Shown here in pieces: positions 3,870 through 32,000 of a stretch of DNA of 32,000 bases. Position 1 is the first letter of the stretch. Each line of letters starts with the position of its first letter. The position numbers and the translations under genes are program-made. The notes under the pieces were generated by a model, which did not search any database, had not been told where the DNA came from, and worked only from the letters and a program-made list of their open reading frames with translations. Source of the DNA: Ureaplasma parvum serovar 3 str. ATCC 27815 (lineage in GTDB: Bacteria; Bacillota_I; Bacilli_A; Mycoplasmatales; Mycoplasmoidaceae). The stretch covers positions 90,001-122,000 of the forward strand of contig NC_010503.1 in assembly GCF_000019345.1 (NCBI RefSeq), read 5' to 3'.

Positions 3870-4862
3870 CTATTTCTCAATAACATTATGATCATCGATA
3901 ATATCAACATTAGAGTTGCTAATATTATCGCTTTTATTGTATGATATTAAACTAATTAATTCATCATCATTAACATGCATATAAATATTTTCTTGAACAC
4001 GATAAGCTTTTTCTTTATTAATTTGTTTACCAAAGAATTTGATTAATGAAATGATTTTATTTTCACTTGGATTAATAATTTTATGATCAATTAAAAAGTA
4101 GTAAATTAAATAATATTGAACCATATCGTCTTGACGAATAAAGTAGTCATATTTGTATTTATTTTTTTTAAATTCAATATATGATAAATCTATAAAATTA
4201 GCAAAAGAACTATGTTCTTTATTATATTTAATAACGAATTTTTTAAAATCATAAACCTCATTTAAACTTCAAGAACTAATTATTTTACGAACACGATTGC
4301 GTTCGTATATATCTAATTCATTTGTTTCGTCAATACCATACTTAATTTTATTTTCATCACAATAGCGTTGTAATGTTTGTTTACGCACAAATAAAACCGG
4401 ACGTTTAACAATTATGCCATTAATAACATTACTTTCCTTAATGCCATAAAATAAGGCTTTTGATTGGCGAGCTCGTTGCATATATGCCGTTTCTAAAAAA
4501 TCATCAAAATTATGCGCTATATACAAATTTTCAATATTATATTTTTTACCAATTTCTTTGAAAAAATCATAACGAATTAAACGTGCTTTTGTTTGAAAAT
4601 TATCAATATGACCATAACGTTCATAAACTTTTTCATCAACATCTAAAATTTCAATTATTAAATTATTTTTTCTACAAAAATCGACAACTATTTGCTGATC
4701 ACGATCGGATGATTCGCGTTTATGATAATTCACATGACAAACAACACGAATATTTCTTTTGTACATATTTAACATTGCCATAGAATCTGGACCACCAGAA
4801 ACAGCAGCTAAGTATTTTTTATTACTAATTCTATTAATTAAATTTGTTCATAACTTTATCAA
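3870..4862 (-). CDS. tilS: tRNA(Ile)-lysidine synthetase
   Basis: Track ORFs 3870..4124 and 4269..4781 share one frame and join through the TGA at 4269-4271, with the gap checked codon by codon. The PP-loop '[11 protein letters not shown]' lies just upstream of the track ORF start. No ATG is available. The candidate starts are TTG at 4860-4862, which overlaps the pth 3' end, or ATT at 4827-4829, so the 5' end is uncertain. Confidence 0.75.
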
Positions 4863-5394
4863 AATCTTCACCAATCGCTGCTAATGTAGCTAAAGCGCCC
4901 TTTATAATAGCTGGTTTAATTATAACTAATTCGTCAATCTTAAAATTCGATAAGACATATTGATCTAATTTTATATGTGGATCTTTATCAATTCCTATAC
5001 GAATGCGTTTAATTTCATCTGTTTTTAAAATGTTAATAATATTTTTAATTCCATTTTGCCCTCCTGAGGACCCCTTTTTTCTCAATTTTATCGTTCCTAA
5101 TTTCGTATCAACATCATCATAAATAACTATTAAATTTTTAATTGGAATATTATAAAAATTAAGCATTTTGATAACAAATTCACCACTTAAATTCATGTAA
5201 GTTGTTGGTTGACAAAAAAACACTATGGAATTGTTATAAATTGTTTTAGTAAAAATTCCATTAAATTTTGAACTATCTAGAGACAAATTAAGTTTGTTGC
5301 AAATCTCATTAATAACCATAAAGCCAACATTATGTCTTGTTTTTGCATAGTTTGATCCTGGATTACCTAATCCAACAATTAAATATTTTTCCAC
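4834..5394 (-). CDS. pth: peptidyl-tRNA hydrolase
   Basis: Intact 186-aa ORF. The N-terminal '[21 protein letters not shown]' is the classic Pth signature. Confidence 0.93.
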
Positions 5395-5615
5395 ATTTAA
5401 TACCCATATTATAAACGTACAATGTTTATAAATCTCTTCAATAAAATTATTATATAATAGATGAATTTTAAGTTATGCACATTTAAACACTTAATAATAA
5501 TATTAATAATTAAAAATAAATAAATAAAAAATAAATTATATTTTAAAGCATCACGCTTTTTTGAATTTATATCTTTTATAATATAAATAATAAAAAATGA
5601 GGATTTTAATAAAAC

Positions 5616-18502: not shown

Positions 18503-18568
18503 TTTTTTATTTTAAAACAATCTTTAATTATTCATTTTAAATGGGGGTTATAATAATTGTATAATTAT

Positions 18569-18575
18569 AAGGAGG
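18569..18575 (+). promoter_or_regulatory. canonical Shine-Dalgarno (AAGGAGG) for the small repeat-protein gene
   Basis: AAGGAGG lies 8 nt upstream of the ATG at 18584. Two TATAAT hexamers (18549-18554 and 18560-18565) lie just upstream. Confidence 0.55.
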
Positions 18576-18583
18576 TTAAACAT

Positions 18584-18826
18584 ATGGGTTACGGTAAAGG
18601 ATACTTAGCAATGTTTAAAAACAAGAAAGTAAGATTTAAGGTTGTAAATAGCTTTCCTGATCTAAAGGTTCAATTTGTTACATCATTTCCTGATTACAAA
18701 GTAAAGATTTCAAATTCATCTTCTTTTTGTGAGGAAACTATTAAAATTCAAGTTGTTACTAGCTTTCCTGATGTAAAATTACAAAAAGTTACATCATTCG
18801 GTGATTTTGAAGCTTATATTGACTAA
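18584..18826 (+). CDS. hypothetical 80-aa protein made of SFPD-x-KV repeats
   Basis: I prefer the ATG at 18584, which has a perfect SD, over the track's TTG at 18557. The protein is 'MGYGKGYLAMFKNKKVRFKVVNSFPDLKVQFVTSFPDYKVKISNSSSFCEETIKIQVVTSFPDVKLQKVTSFGDFEAYID'. That gives about five 11-residue units of the form V-x-S-F-P-D-x-K-V. I do not recognise it as a characterised family. Confidence 0.6.
   Translation: MGYGKGYLAMFKNKKVRFKVVNSFPDLKVQFVTSFPDYKVKISNSSSFCEETIKIQVVTSFPDVKLQKVTSFGDFEAYID
18641..18817 (+). repeat. internal duplication within the small ORF (two ~66-nt double units, 111 nt apart)
   Basis: Segments 18641-18706 and 18752-18817 align without gaps. By eye they are roughly three-quarters identical, sharing 'agctttcctgat' and 'gttacatcatt'. 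Each encodes two SFPD-type units. Confidence 0.7.
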
Positions 18827-18859
18827 GAACTAGATAATAAAAAATTTTTATTTTTTGAT

Positions 18860-18889
18860 TGAGCTGGTGGTATGCTGGCTCATTTTTTT
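18860..18889 (+). terminator. intrinsic terminator/attenuator-like hairpin between the small ORF and the nuclease gene
   Basis: The stem pairs 18860-18867 with 18875-18882 ('tgagctgg' with 'ctggctca'), giving 8 bp including 2 G-U pairs. The loop is 7 nt and a run of 7 T follows at 18883-18889. The track's ATG at 18872 sits inside the loop. Confidence 0.5.
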
Positions 18890-18922
18890 AATATATTTAA
18901 TTTGAGAAGAGGCGAGTTAATT

Positions 18923-20626
18923 ATGGCTAATGAGTATTATAATATGTGTGCCTTAGATGCACTCAAATTTGTGAAAAATAGAAATATGTTATTACCAGAT
19001 ATTCAAAGAGAATATGTTTGGGATACAACTGATATAGAAAAATTATTTGAATCTATAGTTGATGATTATCCAGTGGGTTCTTGTATATTTTGGAAAACAA
19101 ATAAAAAAGTACTTAATGATGAAAAACCAAATCTTTATTATTTTATTTCTAAATATAAGCAAGGCGTAACTAAAAATGAAAAAGCACCAGAATTTGTATC
19201 TGATGAAACAGATTATTATATAGTATTAGATGGACAACAAAGAATTACATCTCTTAATATTGCATTGTTTGGATCGTTTACATCTAAGAAAAAAGGTAAA
19301 GGATATAGTGTAAAAAATTCTAAATCATGGGTAGAACGAGAACTATATTATAATTTATCTTTTTACGACAGCAATGAATTGGATGATGAAAATCCCATTA
19401 AAAGATTTGTATTTTTGTCTGAAGAAGAAGCAAAGAATGGTAATTATTATAAAGTTAAGCAAATAGTTAAAAGTGATAACTTAACTGATTATGTTGATAC
19501 AATATCGAATTTTAATAAAAATGTAAAAACGGATTTAATGTGTTTGTATAGAAGAATTATGGAAGCGTCTGCCACTAGTGTAATTCATTATTATTGCATT
19601 GCAGAGAATACATATGATGAAGCACTAGATATTTTTGTTAGAGTAAATTCTACTGGAAGAAAACTATCAAAGTCCGATTTATTATTTTCTACATTAATTG
19701 ATGGTTGGAAAGAAGGGAAGGAAAATATAGACACCTTATTGTCTGACTTAAATTCAGCTGGAGATGGATTTTCTTTTACAAGAGATTATTTAATGCGATT
19801 GGCTTTGGTATTAGTTGATGCAAATACTAATTTAAAAATTGATTCGTTAACTTCTAAAACAATAAAGGAAATCAGGGATAACTGGCAAAAAATAAAGAAA
19901 GCGCTAGAAAAATTATCTGAATTATTAGTTTCAATTGGCATGTGTGACGAAAATATGACCTCATATAATGCAACCATTCCACTGGCATATTATTTTTACA
20001 AAGGTGGCAAAATTGATACAGCAGAATCAAAAAAAGAAGCAAGAAAGTTCCTAGCCGTTTCAATGTCAAAAGGACTGTTTGGTGTAGCAAGTAATGATTC
20101 TTTGAATCAAAGCAGAACTGCTCTTAAGTCAGTAAATGAAAAAACTCCATTTTCATTAACTTTATTTAGTAGTATTACTTTAACGGGTAATAGAACATTT
20201 ACTGCATCGAAAGATGATATTGAATATTGGTTGACGAAGTTTGAAAAAGGAAAAAACACATTCATAATTCTTTCTTTGCTTTATCCTAATTTAAAGTTAA
20301 GCCAAGTTGAGTTCCATCAGGATCACTGTCACCCTTATACTTCATTTGATGATAAAAACATTAAAAAATTAGGATTGACAGAAGATAAAATAAAAGAATG
20401 GCAGTTTAAAAGAAATTTAATTCCTAATTTGCAGTTTTTGGCAGGTAAGGAAAATGAGTCAAAAAATAAAAGGCCTTTATCAAATTGGGTTAAAGATGGA
20501 AATACCTTTGAATATAGACCAGAAAATGTTTCTCTTGAATTATCCAATTTTGATAAATTTTTTAATGAAAGAAAATCCCTTATAAAAAATAAGCTTTTGG
20601 ATATTTTTGGTTTAAAAGCAAACTAA
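18923..20626 (+). CDS. DUF262 + DUF1524 (His-Me/HNH-type) nuclease, GmrSD/BrxU-like type IV restriction-family protein
   Basis: This is an uninterrupted ORF. The N-terminal DUF262 motifs are 'LLPDIQREYVW' (19001-19021), 'YPVGSCIFW', 'VLDGQQRITSL' (DGQQR at 19229-19243) and 'VNSTGRKLSKSDLLFS'. The C-terminal DUF1524-type motifs are 'HQDHCHP' (20315-20335) and 'NLIPNLQFLAGKENESKNK'. I prefer the ATG at 18923, which is downstream of the hairpin and preceded by GAGG-containing sequence, giving 567 aa. Confidence 0.85.
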   Translation: MANEYYNMCALDALKFVKNRNMLLPDIQREYVWDTTDIEKLFESIVDDYPVGSCIFWKTNKKVLNDEKPNLYYFISKYKQGVTKNEKAPEFVSDETDYYIVLDGQQRITSLNIALFGSFTSKKKGKGYSVKNSKSWVERELYYNLSFYDSNELDDENPIKRFVFLSEEEAKNGNYYKVKQIVKSDNLTDYVDTISNFNKNVKTDLMCLYRRIMEASATSVIHYYCIAENTYDEALDIFVRVNSTGRKLSKSDLLFSTLIDGWKEGKENIDTLLSDLNSAGDGFSFTRDYLMRLALVLVDANTNLKIDSLTSKTIKEIRDNWQKIKKALEKLSELLVSIGMCDENMTSYNATIPLAYYFYKGGKIDTAESKKEARKFLAVSMSKGLFGVASNDSLNQSRTALKSVNEKTPFSLTLFSSITLTGNRTFTASKDDIEYWLTKFEKGKNTFIILSLLYPNLKLSQVEFHQDHCHPYTSFDDKNIKKLGLTEDKIKEWQFKRNLIPNLQFLAGKENESKNKRPLSNWVKDGNTFEYRPENVSLELSNFDKFFNERKSLIKNKLLDIFGLKAN

Positions 20627-20853
20627 AAATAAATAAATGTATAAAAATCTAGATTTTACTCAGTTCTAAATAAATTAATTTCTGTATGAAGTGGAATTAC
20701 ATGGTTTTTTTGCTTGAATATTGTAAATATTCGTATGCTTTGATATAGTATTAATGCAAGCCAATGTGTATAGTGCTTTGCAGTACCTATGACCGATTAA
20801 TGGTGGAGTGGTGCAAAAAAAATTATTTTTCTCTGATCTCAAAGGGTTGATGA

Positions 20854-20931
20854 AAGGAGGAACTTATTATGTCATCAAACAAAGTAGAAAGATTCGACTT
20901 GTTTAAGAACATAACATTATCATTTTGATAA
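20854..20931 (+). other. orphan strong SD (AAGGAGG) plus 20-codon micro-ORF, possibly the 5' remnant of a lost gene
   Basis: AAGGAGG at 20854-20860 lies 8 nt upstream of the ATG at 20869. The ORF reads 'MSSNKVERFDLFKNITLSF' and then TGA-TAA (20926-20931). A 7-bp inverted repeat, 'ttgatga' and 'tcatcaa', brackets the SD and start codon. Confidence 0.2.
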
Positions 20932-21241
20932 ATTAATATTTTGTTTAAGAATAGATAACATTTTAAATTCTTAGTTCTAATTCGTTAATCTTTTTCTAAT
21001 TTAAGAATTTTTATTTATAGATTTGTTTTTTTTAACTCATTGGTTATTTTAATTAATTCATTAATACTATAAATTAGAAACATTTTATTTTGATTAGAAG
21101 CATTTTGAATTTAAACTTTATATCTATAATACAAATTTTGTGTTTTTTATAATTTTATAAATTTCTTATTAAGAAATACAAAGATTAAATAATATAATTA
21201 ATGATTAGTACAATAATTTTTAAAATATAAAGAGGTAATTG

Positions 21242-30187: not shown

Positions 30188-32000
30188 TTAACCACGGAAT
30201 TTTTCAAAATATTCGAGTAATTTTTCAGTAGCATTTTCTTTTATTTTAGACCTATTACTATTCTGATTACTTTTTTTAAAAAAAGAGGTAGGAGGCATTA
30301 AATTAACAATATCTACTCCATTTTCATTAAATTCATTATTTTCAAATGCTTTTTTCATAAATTCAAATGTTTTTTTGTTATCTAATTTATTTTCATTAAT
30401 TATTTTTATAAGCTCACTTTCTTTTTTATTTTTAATAAACTTACTCCATTCATTAAAAATATCAATTTCATCCTTATTAGGTAGTTTATTAATTTCATTA
30501 ACAAATTCAATAATTAAATCTTTCTTTTTTCGCGCTTTTAGACTAGATAAAATATCTCTTTCTAGATCGTGATATTTAACTTCTTTTAGATCTTTTTTGA
30601 GCTTTTCATTCATTAACTTAAGAATATAATCAACACCAATATCTTGTTGACTAATTAATTCAATTTTAAAATCAAGATCACTAACAATGCTATCTGTTTC
30701 CATACGTTTTTTATCTTGATATTTATCACGCAACCCGATATATATACTTTGATAATCTTGCATTTCTGTACCAATAAGATCATCGTTTTGTTCAAATTCA
30801 CTAAATTGTGAAAGCAAATTTTTATATTTTAAAATATCACCAAAAAGTTTAATAAAAATTCTTTCCTCTTCTTTTGTTCCATTAAAAGGAATTTTAAAGT
30901 TACTTTTTAATTCTTCTACTAAGTTTCGATAACCTTGTATATATTGATTATCTTCATTATAATATCCTTCATAATATTCTTTAAATGATCTTAAAATAGC
31001 GATCGAAGAATTAATATTGCTCTCTGATGAAAATAATCTTAAAGCTTCATTCACTTCATCTTCTAAATTTATGAAAAAGACAATATTACCATTTGATTTA
31101 ACACCATTAAGAATTCGATTGGTTCGCGACATTGCTTGAATTAAACTATGATATTTTAGTTTTTTGTCCAATCATAATGTATTTAAAGTTGTTGCATCAA
31201 AACCTGTTAAAAACATATTAACAACGATTGCTATATCTAAGCTTCGATCCTTTAATCTCAAGCTAAAGTCTTTATAGTAATTATTAAAATTAGCATTATC
31301 TGTTGAGTATGATGTCCCAAACATTTCATTATAATCTTTAATCGCTTCATCAAGAAAATTACGTGAATCTAAATCAAGTTGATTAGTGTTTTCGTTATTC
31401 TCATCTAATAGTTCAAAATTAGAAAGTTCATTATCATTACTTTCTTGTTCGCTTGGTAAATAACTATAAATTAATCCAATTTTTAATTTTTCTTCTTGAG
31501 GAAATTTTTGTTGTTGTTTTTTAAATTCTGAATAATATATTTTAGCTGCATTAATAGAAGAGCAAGCTAGAATAGAATTAAATCCATTTAGTGTTGTTAA
31601 TACTTTATTTTCGCTTAATTTATTTCTGCTAGTAATAACTTCATTTATATTAGCAATCTTATTATGTTCAAAAAATTCTTCATTTCTTTTGGTTAAACGA
31701 TTATAGTTTTTTAAAATAAAATCAACAATTTCAGAAATACGAATCGGATTTTCCAAAGCTTCTTTTTTATCTATTCCAGTTGATGATGTTTCATCGTCAA
31801 TGTCATCTTTTTCGCTAAGTGTTTTATAATACTCCGTTCTAAAACCTAAAACATTACCATCACGAATAGCTTTATCAATTGTATATTTATGTAAACAAGC
31901 TCCAAAAAGATGCTCTGTTGTAAAGAAAATATTTTTATTTTTGACATTACTATTTTCTTCTAAAATAGGTGTGCCTGTAAACCCAAAAATCATATATTTT
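30188..32000 (-). CDS. hsdR: type I restriction enzyme R subunit (C-terminal ~600 aa; 5' end beyond window)
   Basis: Track ORFs 31172..31993 and 30188..31171 form one frame joined by the TGA at 31172-31174, reading 'TLNTLWLDKKLKYHSLIQAMSRTNR'. It has the helicase motifs 'FGFTGTPI' and 'QAMSRTNR', followed by a long helical C-terminal region. The frame stays open to the window edge. Confidence 0.9.

Follow-up and report, generated by a model that had tools for sequence, protein, structure and literature searches.

A predicted BrxU-like nuclease gene with TGG as its only tryptophan codon, carried on a strain-variable insertion in Ureaplasma parvum

The 32,000-nucleotide (nt) stretch of the Ureaplasma parvum serovar 3 str. 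ATCC 27815 chromosome analysed here (NC_010503.1, positions 90,001 to 122,000; hereafter the window, to which coordinates refer unless another contig is named) carries between recR and ffh a nuclease gene, at 18923-20626, in which every tryptophan (Trp) codon is TGG, although the organism reads TGA as Trp. This gene very probably encodes a horizontally acquired, BrxU-type enzyme directed against phage or other foreign DNA, of standard-code ancestry, which reached the recR-ffh interval as part of a mosaic insertion and retains its TGG codons as a passive mark of where it came from. In the history that we favour, the nuclease lineage would have evolved in Firmicute-type bacteria that use the standard code, in which Trp is spelled by TGG only. 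The cassette would then have moved between two urogenital mollicutes that use genetic code 4, U. parvum and Metamycoplasma hominis, with the involvement of an insertion sequence (IS), and too little time would have passed for AT-biased G-to-A drift to convert any of the eight inherited TGG codons to TGA. It is this short time since import that would make the TGG-only, TGA-free pattern a passive record of ancestry.

The codon pattern had been pointed out in an original prediction, made by a model from the letters of the window, and it was borne out when open reading frames (ORFs) were called again with genetic code 4 across the 32-kb window, which yielded about 20 ordinary housekeeping genes as well as the nuclease ORF. 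The latter (18872..20626, plus strand) consists of 584 codons and a stop, contains no in-frame TGA, and also forms a single unbroken ORF under translation table 11. A start at 18923 is backed by homology, the homologues beginning at the methionine of MANEYY..., and gives a protein of 567 amino acids (aa). Its Trp codons are eight TGG and no TGA, and all eight Trp contexts originally listed (YVW, IFW, KSW, DGW, DNW, EYW, KEW and SNW) are found in the translation. The contrast drawn with the neighbouring genes was essentially right on recounting, with nine rather than about ten TGA codons in the ABC permease: the TGA/TGG counts are 5/0 in lgt, 5/0 in gyrB, 9/0 in the ABC permease, 9/2 in the lipoprotein gene, 1/1 in dnaX, 3/1 in ffh and 1/1 in the hsdR fragment. 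TGG is rare in native genes, the total over 20 window genes being 5 TGG and 47 TGA, and at that rate the binomial probability of eight TGG codons out of eight is (5/52)^8 = 7e-9 (Fisher exact p = 5e-7).

The nuclease remains an outlier in codon usage when Trp is left out of the comparison (chi2/df 4.2, against 0.7-2.05 in native genes). Its arginine codons include 15 AGA and no CGT, whereas native genes use CGT for about 50%; TTG, AAG and ATA are over-used; and the choices made for leucine, lysine, arginine and Trp are all atypical. The bulk composition of the gene is nevertheless that of its host (GC 0.28, GC at third codon positions (GC3) 0.18, tetranucleotide distance z = 1.2), so that the atypical base composition expected of an acquired island is not seen in GC, GC3 or tetranucleotides, and codon choice alone is atypical. 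Trp-codon spelling can in this way flag foreign DNA in code-4 genomes even where GC and k-mers look native, a flag that is useful in the annotation of minimal genomes. For the prophage of M. bovirhinis, near-exclusive TGG has been cited as a mark of recent exogenous acquisition (PMC8614714), and in that prophage, HAZ141_2, as here, foreign DNA in a code-4 mycoplasma was recognized by its near-exclusive use of TGG for Trp. Unlike HAZ141_2, which is 54 kb long and GC-rich (40.7%), the U. parvum cassette is 2.4 kb long with 28% GC, which matches its host and makes the Trp and arginine codon choices the main compositional clue. The nuclease gene is a clean case, with precedent, of a TGG-only import across a genetic-code boundary.

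The insertion that holds the gene is polymorphic within U. parvum. An intact empty site, consisting of recR, a 341-bp spacer and ffh, is present in L013-L018, which include the complete genomes CP021988 and CP041199 and have a slightly different RecR allele, whereas strains of the window type (L009-L012 and 20 similar places) carry an 80-aa ORF and the nuclease at the same position. Aligned to the empty site, the insertion has its junctions at 18542/18543 and 20968/20969, and homology to the empty-site strain L013 stops at 18542. A 10-bp A/T-rich direct repeat, CATTTTAAAT, occurs at both ends of the insert and once at the empty site, an arrangement that may be a target-site duplication but is just as compatible with microhomology. 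At its left end, the insert begins with 357 bp of a foreign module distinct from the core, comprising a 7(1) septoil-knot ORF and a terminator-like hairpin, and this module is missing from the M. hominis island described below. The septoil-knot ORF matches phrog_6462 at 2e-8, and its best relatives, 83-86% identical, come from non-mollicute contigs in which the neighbours are serine recombinases or WYL/PDDEXK genes.

U. parvum has the core of the insertion in common with M. hominis. The protein cluster at 90% identity to which the nuclease belongs (68 members) names U. parvum and M. hominis only, and the DNA shared with the latter, in which it occupies a different locus, is limited to 18900-20899 and is 98.2% identical. 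The two nuclease genes differ by a synonymous divergence (dS) of 0.033, with a ratio of nonsynonymous to synonymous divergence (dN/dS) of 0.42, and all of the mollicute copies sampled (14/14) are intact and free of stops, each having 8 TGG and 0 TGA. In M. hominis the nuclease adjoins uvrB in every contig examined; these copies come from the assemblies retrieved via this protein.

On the M. hominis contig L001, an IS-like unit of about 1 kb (4254-5264), whose terminal inverted repeats are 41 nt long and whose 281-aa ORF contains two TGA codons, is followed by 4.7 kb of cargo, in which the nuclease is accompanied by ORFs of 324 aa, 142 aa, 52 aa (helix-turn-helix, HTH) and 107 aa. The cargo is bracketed, in the manner of a composite transposon, by 71-nt inverted copies of the IS end (L001 5193-5263 and 9964-10034; 99%), the island boundaries being defined by the inverted repeats alone, and several M. 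hominis assemblies break exactly within this 71-nt repeat. In neither size nor repeat length does the element match ISMhom-1, published as 1.26 kb long with 27-bp inverted repeats (PMC7648426). The codon signature of the nuclease extends to its companions: the 324-aa and 142-aa genes have 5 TGG and 0 TGA each, making 18 TGG and 0 TGA over three genes with the nuclease included, whereas the native genes of this M. hominis contig have 15 TGA and 2 TGG.

Homology between the two species begins exactly at the tip of the IS (L001 5262, corresponding to window position 18900). At the other end, the shared segment in U. parvum stops ten codons into the 324-aa gene and gives way to two IS-end-like motifs and then to the target repeat; these motifs, at 20899-20917 and 20941-20961, are the only two in the window, and both lie at the right end of the insert. 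Immediately to the left of the core, 18884-18899 still resembles the region upstream of the homologue in Candidatus Enteromonas (see below), a place that is taken by the IS end in M. hominis. This difference points to different truncations of one precursor, and the U. parvum and M. hominis arrangements look, from their sequences, like separate truncations of it, with neither derived from the other.

Exchange of genes between these two species has been documented before, in the form of five clusters with horizontal gene transfer linking M. hominis with U. parvum, including the type I restriction-modification (R-M) cluster UU095-UU100 and a type III R-M system (Pereyre et al. 2009, PMC2751442). 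The nuclease resembles those clusters in the species pair, in the niche and in the prominence of restriction or defence genes. It differs from them in being absent from that list, in being strain-variable in U. parvum, and in a nucleotide identity, 98%, that is far above the 45-89% protein similarity of the five clusters (PMC2751442). The documented exchange is thereby extended by a much more recent event, and by a candidate IS vehicle.

Beyond the 90% cluster, the closest homologues of the nuclease are not from Mollicutes. The nearest lies on a contig of a Candidatus Enteromonas metagenome-assembled genome, next to an IS66 element (79% aa and 78% nt identity), and the next, at 70% aa identity, belongs to a Firmicute spore-former with SpoVA and sigma-F neighbours; hundreds of proteins follow at 60-66%, those named including Ruminococcaceae, Solobacterium, Enterosoma and Odoribacter. 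By neighbour joining, 61 sequences yield the topology (((U. parvum, M. hominis), Enteromonas), spore-former), embedded among the remaining ones. This phylogeny is incongruent with the species tree, both in the 98% nucleotide identity to M. hominis and in the nesting among standard-code lineages. The genes that flank the Enteromonas and spore-former copies contain TGG only, with no in-frame TGA, which shows that these hosts use the standard code. All eight Trp residues are invariant in 61/61 proteins and are encoded by TGG in the 5/5 DNA copies compared, and the mollicute copies have gained no Trp. [quoted passage not shown] This remnant was the only synteny to emerge from a search for the donor via the accessory genes, in which septoil-knot and 324-aa homologues were found in other mobile or defence contexts with no adjacent nuclease. 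Carriage by phage was considered and rejected: a close-pattern scan of viral contigs found nothing, and annotated phages and plasmids hold only relatives of at most 38% identity. Just downstream of the AT-rich nuclease on the Enteromonas contig, the IS66-family element (TnpA/TnpB/DDE, 49-54% GC; L005 3176-5778) truncates the 142-aa-like gene, a further sign of the cassette in mobile-element hot spots of standard-code hosts.

The original prediction had proposed recent acquisition from a standard-code donor such as a Firmicute or, alternatively, from a mobile element required to function in both codes. The first proposal is supported by the empty site, the 98.2% identity to M. hominis and the nesting among standard-code lineages, but direct transfer from a Firmicute to Ureaplasma does not necessarily follow: given the mollicute IS ends at the junctions and the near-identity with M. 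hominis, the immediate visible event is an exchange between two code-4 mollicutes. We infer, rather than observe, in which direction and by what vehicle the cassette was transferred, and who the original donor was.

The persistence of TGG calls for no special mechanism. Between the U. parvum and M. hominis copies, 2/35 of the twofold codons ending in G (NNG) differ, from which the neutral chance of keeping 8/8 TGG codons is about 0.63, and selection for the avoidance of TGA is therefore unnecessary. Amelioration, by which the low GC3 would stem from long residence in mollicutes, was rejected because homologues in standard-code hosts of 37-54% GC are equally AT-rich. The nuclease has 27-28% GC (GC3 0.18-0.20) in U. 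parvum, M. hominis, Enteromonas and the spore-former, while the GC content of neighbouring genes is 43-54% on the Enteromonas contig and 37-40% in the spore-former. Equal AT-richness in all hosts makes it a property of the cassette, and removes any conflict with the unconverted TGG codons.

These numbers bear directly on the second proposal, in which selection keeps the cassette free of TGA as it moves between code-4 mollicutes and code-11 bacteria, TGA-bearing copies being dead ends in standard-code hosts. In its favour are a cassette of about 28% GC that is compositionally foreign in every host examined, including those of 37-54% GC, the run of TGG without TGA through three genes of the M. 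hominis cargo (18 to 0), and the occurrence of nuclease relatives on plasmids and in phage records. However, at a dS of 0.033 and with 2/35 NNG codons changed, the lack of any TGG-to-TGA change is simply the neutral expectation; the database contains no standard-code copy above 79% identity and so gives no sign of export from mollicutes; and the flanking IS-like ORF has TGA codons and is hence adapted to mollicutes. An element obliged to work in both codes is thus neither needed nor shown, and we regard such shuttling as very improbable. If it were nevertheless true that the cassette actively circulates across the boundary between UGA as stop and UGA as Trp, and that this circulation keeps it and its island partners free of TGA, mollicutes would be part of a wider Firmicute defence-gene exchange network, and not a dead end isolated by its genetic code.

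Acquisition could also have been parallel, with U. parvum and M. hominis each receiving the cassette directly from the same unsampled standard-code donor. The two species do retain different, complementary parts of a presumed precursor, namely the septoil-knot ORF and the Enteromonas-like 5' flank (18884-18899) in U. parvum and the 324-aa, 142-aa and HTH genes in M. hominis. This route is nonetheless improbable, as the same IS-end sequences are found at the junctions in both species and the IS-like ORF uses TGA, no non-mollicute name appears among the cluster sequences at ≥90%, and transfer between the two mollicutes is already on record for five other clusters (PMC2751442). Least credible of all, to the point of being negligible, is a native mollicute gene that came to use TGG by chance or through translational selection that would, for instance, spare a toxic nuclease from UGA decoding. 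GC, GC3 and tetranucleotides unremarkable for U. parvum would suit such a gene, but the Trp pattern has a probability of about 7e-9, the arginine, leucine and lysine codons are foreign, and the gene has a conspecific empty site, 98% DNA identity to a distant genus and a position nested in standard-code lineages. The empty site and the phylogeny effectively refute a native origin.

Several observations weigh against the favoured history, or against the function that goes with it. Among 5.8 billion proteins, no standard-code copy is closer than 79% aa identity, from which it follows that the actual donor is unsampled and that the time of residence in mollicutes is loosely bounded. A test for G-to-A change on the branch from the Enteromonas split has counts too small to settle the point, at 2/5 polarized and 12/18 unpolarized changes, and the native codon baseline is taken from the 32-kb window and about 17 kb of M. 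hominis rather than from a whole genome. The left end of the U. parvum insert has no IS end and the 281-aa IS ORF has no Pfam or PHROG match, so that insertion by an IS is presumed rather than observed. The dN/dS of 0.42 rests on 30 differences and is compatible with relaxed constraint, and some members of the 90% cluster are shortened, to 455 and 531 aa. Lastly, the Pfam DUF1524 model gives no match to the C-terminal domain, even when this is searched in isolation, and NCBIfam gives none either; assignment of the nuclease domain therefore rests on the alignment to BrxU and on the fold match, to which we now turn.

The protein is predicted to be a BrxU-like, GmrSD-family type IV restriction endonuclease of the HEC-05 type. 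Pfam GmrSD_N (PF03235; DUF262), a ParB-like NTPase domain, matches residues 17-258 (2.9e-34), and the PADLOC HEC-05 profile PDLC04151 covers residues 11-563 of 567 (8.7e-150). BrxU (7P9K) is the sole sequence match in the PDB (4e-59, nuclease residues 16-523 against BrxU residues 14-530), and also the sole significant PDB fold match to an AlphaFold model of the protein (43 homologues; mean predicted local distance difference test score, pLDDT, 82), with a Foldseek value of 6e-27 and a probability of 1.0; identity in the structure-based alignment is about 25%. Both domains would lie in one 567-aa chain, joined in the model by a helical middle region at approximately residues 260-400. The motifs of BrxU have clear counterparts. 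DGQQR, at residues 103-107, aligns with DGQQR of BrxU and is invariant in the 43 homologues; KLFES aligns with RLFDS, F42 and S44 being invariant in the same set and the changes R to K and D to E conservative; and FHQDHCHP (464-471) aligns with FHVDHIYP and PNLQFL..N with PNLQLL..N, in a block that is again invariant in the 43 homologues.

RLFDS (nucleotide-binding), DGQQR and DHIYP are motifs important in BrxU, an enzyme that degrades DNA containing 5-methylcytosine (5mC), 5-hydroxymethylcytosine (5hmC) or glucosylated 5hmC (glc-5hmC), spares unmodified DNA, and requires a hydrolysable nucleoside triphosphate (NTP) and a metal, Mg2+ (PMC8565348). BrxU/HEC-05 is experimentally validated as defence (PMC8565348 for BrxU), the HEC-05 representative tested by Payne et al. 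being 99.2% identical to BrxU. In the U. parvum protein, the N-terminal DUF262 domain would bind and hydrolyse NTP, the C-terminal His-Me/HNH DUF1524-like domain would cut DNA with modified cytosines (5mC, 5hmC and glucosyl-5hmC), and the enzyme as a whole would restrict phage DNA that carries modifications as well as the DNA of strains with 5mC methylation; we infer its enzymatic specificity and its expression from sequence.

The nuclease shares with BrxU of Escherichia fergusonii pEFER (PDB 7P9K/7P9M) the combination, in a single polypeptide of roughly 570-590 aa, of DUF262 at the N-terminus and a nuclease of the DUF1524 type at the C-terminus. Unlike that of BrxU, its gene stands outside any BREX (bacteriophage exclusion), Hma or type I R-M operon, the type I hsdR lying about 9.5 kb away, and it resides in a code-4 mollicute that has no cell wall. 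GmrSD (E. coli CT596 / Eco94GmrSD) and SspE likewise join an NTPase to a His-Me nuclease, but the match of SspE to the nuclease is weak, N-terminal and 26 residues long, and GmrSD is far more distant, BrxU itself being only 13% identical to it. In the literature that could be searched, no paper links DUF262 with Ureaplasma. A predicted BrxU-type modification-dependent nuclease here joins the strain-variable defence genes already known from U. parvum and M. hominis. As M. hominis strains carry variable 5mC methyltransferase systems (PMC12376442), a 5mC-sensing nuclease may well be biologically meaningful in the urogenital niche. It is a plausible barrier to 5mC DNA and could thereby influence how genes move among urogenital mollicutes; transformation of U. 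parvum and M. hominis, which are hard to manipulate, with (dcm-methylated) plasmids propagated in E. coli may be affected as well. The suggestion in the original prediction that the gene could be expressed directly in E. coli holds trivially at the level of its codons; a BrxU-like cutter of 5mC DNA (PMC8565348) may, however, be toxic in dcm+ hosts.

The features of the insertion are collected in Table 1.

Table 1. Annotated features of the recR-ffh insertion and its borders (window coordinates)
Feature	Position	Strand	Remarks
Left direct repeat CATTTTAAAT	18533..18542	.	Single copy at the empty site of other U. parvum strains
Strain-variable insertion of ~2.4 kb between recR and ffh, a mosaic of foreign modules	18543..20968	.	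Absent from L013-L018, present in L009-L012
Septoil-knot ORF, 80 aa	18584..18826	+	PF19647; strong Shine-Dalgarno; no Trp codons
Terminator-like hairpin and T-run at the end of the small-ORF module	18860..18892	+	
Core segment with 98.2% DNA identity to the M. hominis island	18900..20899	.	
Predicted BrxU-like GmrSD-family nuclease gene, motifs KLFES, DGQQR and DHCHP	18923..20626	+	8 TGG / 0 TGA
Conserved leader of ~130 nt upstream of the lost 324-aa partner gene	20739..20868	+	
Remnant of the M. hominis 324-aa island gene, first 10 codons (MSSNKVERFD)	20869..20898	+	
IS-end-like motif TTGTTTAAGAACATAACAT	20899..20917	+	Similar to the right-hand terminal repeat of the IS-like element in M. hominis
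Second IS-end-like motif TTGTTTAAGAATAGATAACAT	20941..20961	+	16 nt match exactly the complement of the left-hand terminal repeat of the IS-like element in M. hominis
Right direct repeat CATTTTAAAT	20959..20968	.	Native recR-ffh spacer resumes beyond it

Some parts of the insertion and of its M. hominis counterpart deserve separate mention. The septoil-knot ORF holds an internal 111-nt spaced direct repeat (VTSFPD motifs). The leader upstream of the 324-aa remnant is kept in M. hominis and shows 76% identity to the stretch that lies upstream of a 324-aa homologue in a genome with the standard code (L027, GCA_000987605.1), a conservation unusually high for an intergenic stretch; an RNA element was considered here and rejected, there being no Rfam match and a fold z-score of -0.96. 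The 324-aa and 142-aa cargo genes of M. hominis (L001 7234-8737) carry no annotation of the Pfam, PHROG or PADLOC type. Homologues of the 324-aa protein number at least 153 in gut-type bacteria; the family occurs in defence-like neighbourhoods that include a DndB-like gene and an N6/N4 methyltransferase, and the two genes are possible defence or anti-defence partners.

Elsewhere in the window, the strongest tetranucleotide outlier (z = 3.6, GC about 0.19) is the segment 28584-30187, which lies between the lipoprotein gene and hsdR (UU095), contains only fragmented minus-strand ORFs of 50-70 aa, and is probably a decayed gene beside the type I R-M cluster. The adjoining hsdR fragment (30188-31999, minus strand) is UU095 of the UU095-UU100 cluster (PMC2751442) and, together with the nuclease, gives the window two separately acquired defence loci no more than about 10 kb apart. 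At the other end of the window, the GC skew changes sign at about 5400-5600, between a minus-strand block (pth and upstream genes) and dnaN-gyrB-gyrA, a switch that is consistent with a region proximal to the replication origin.

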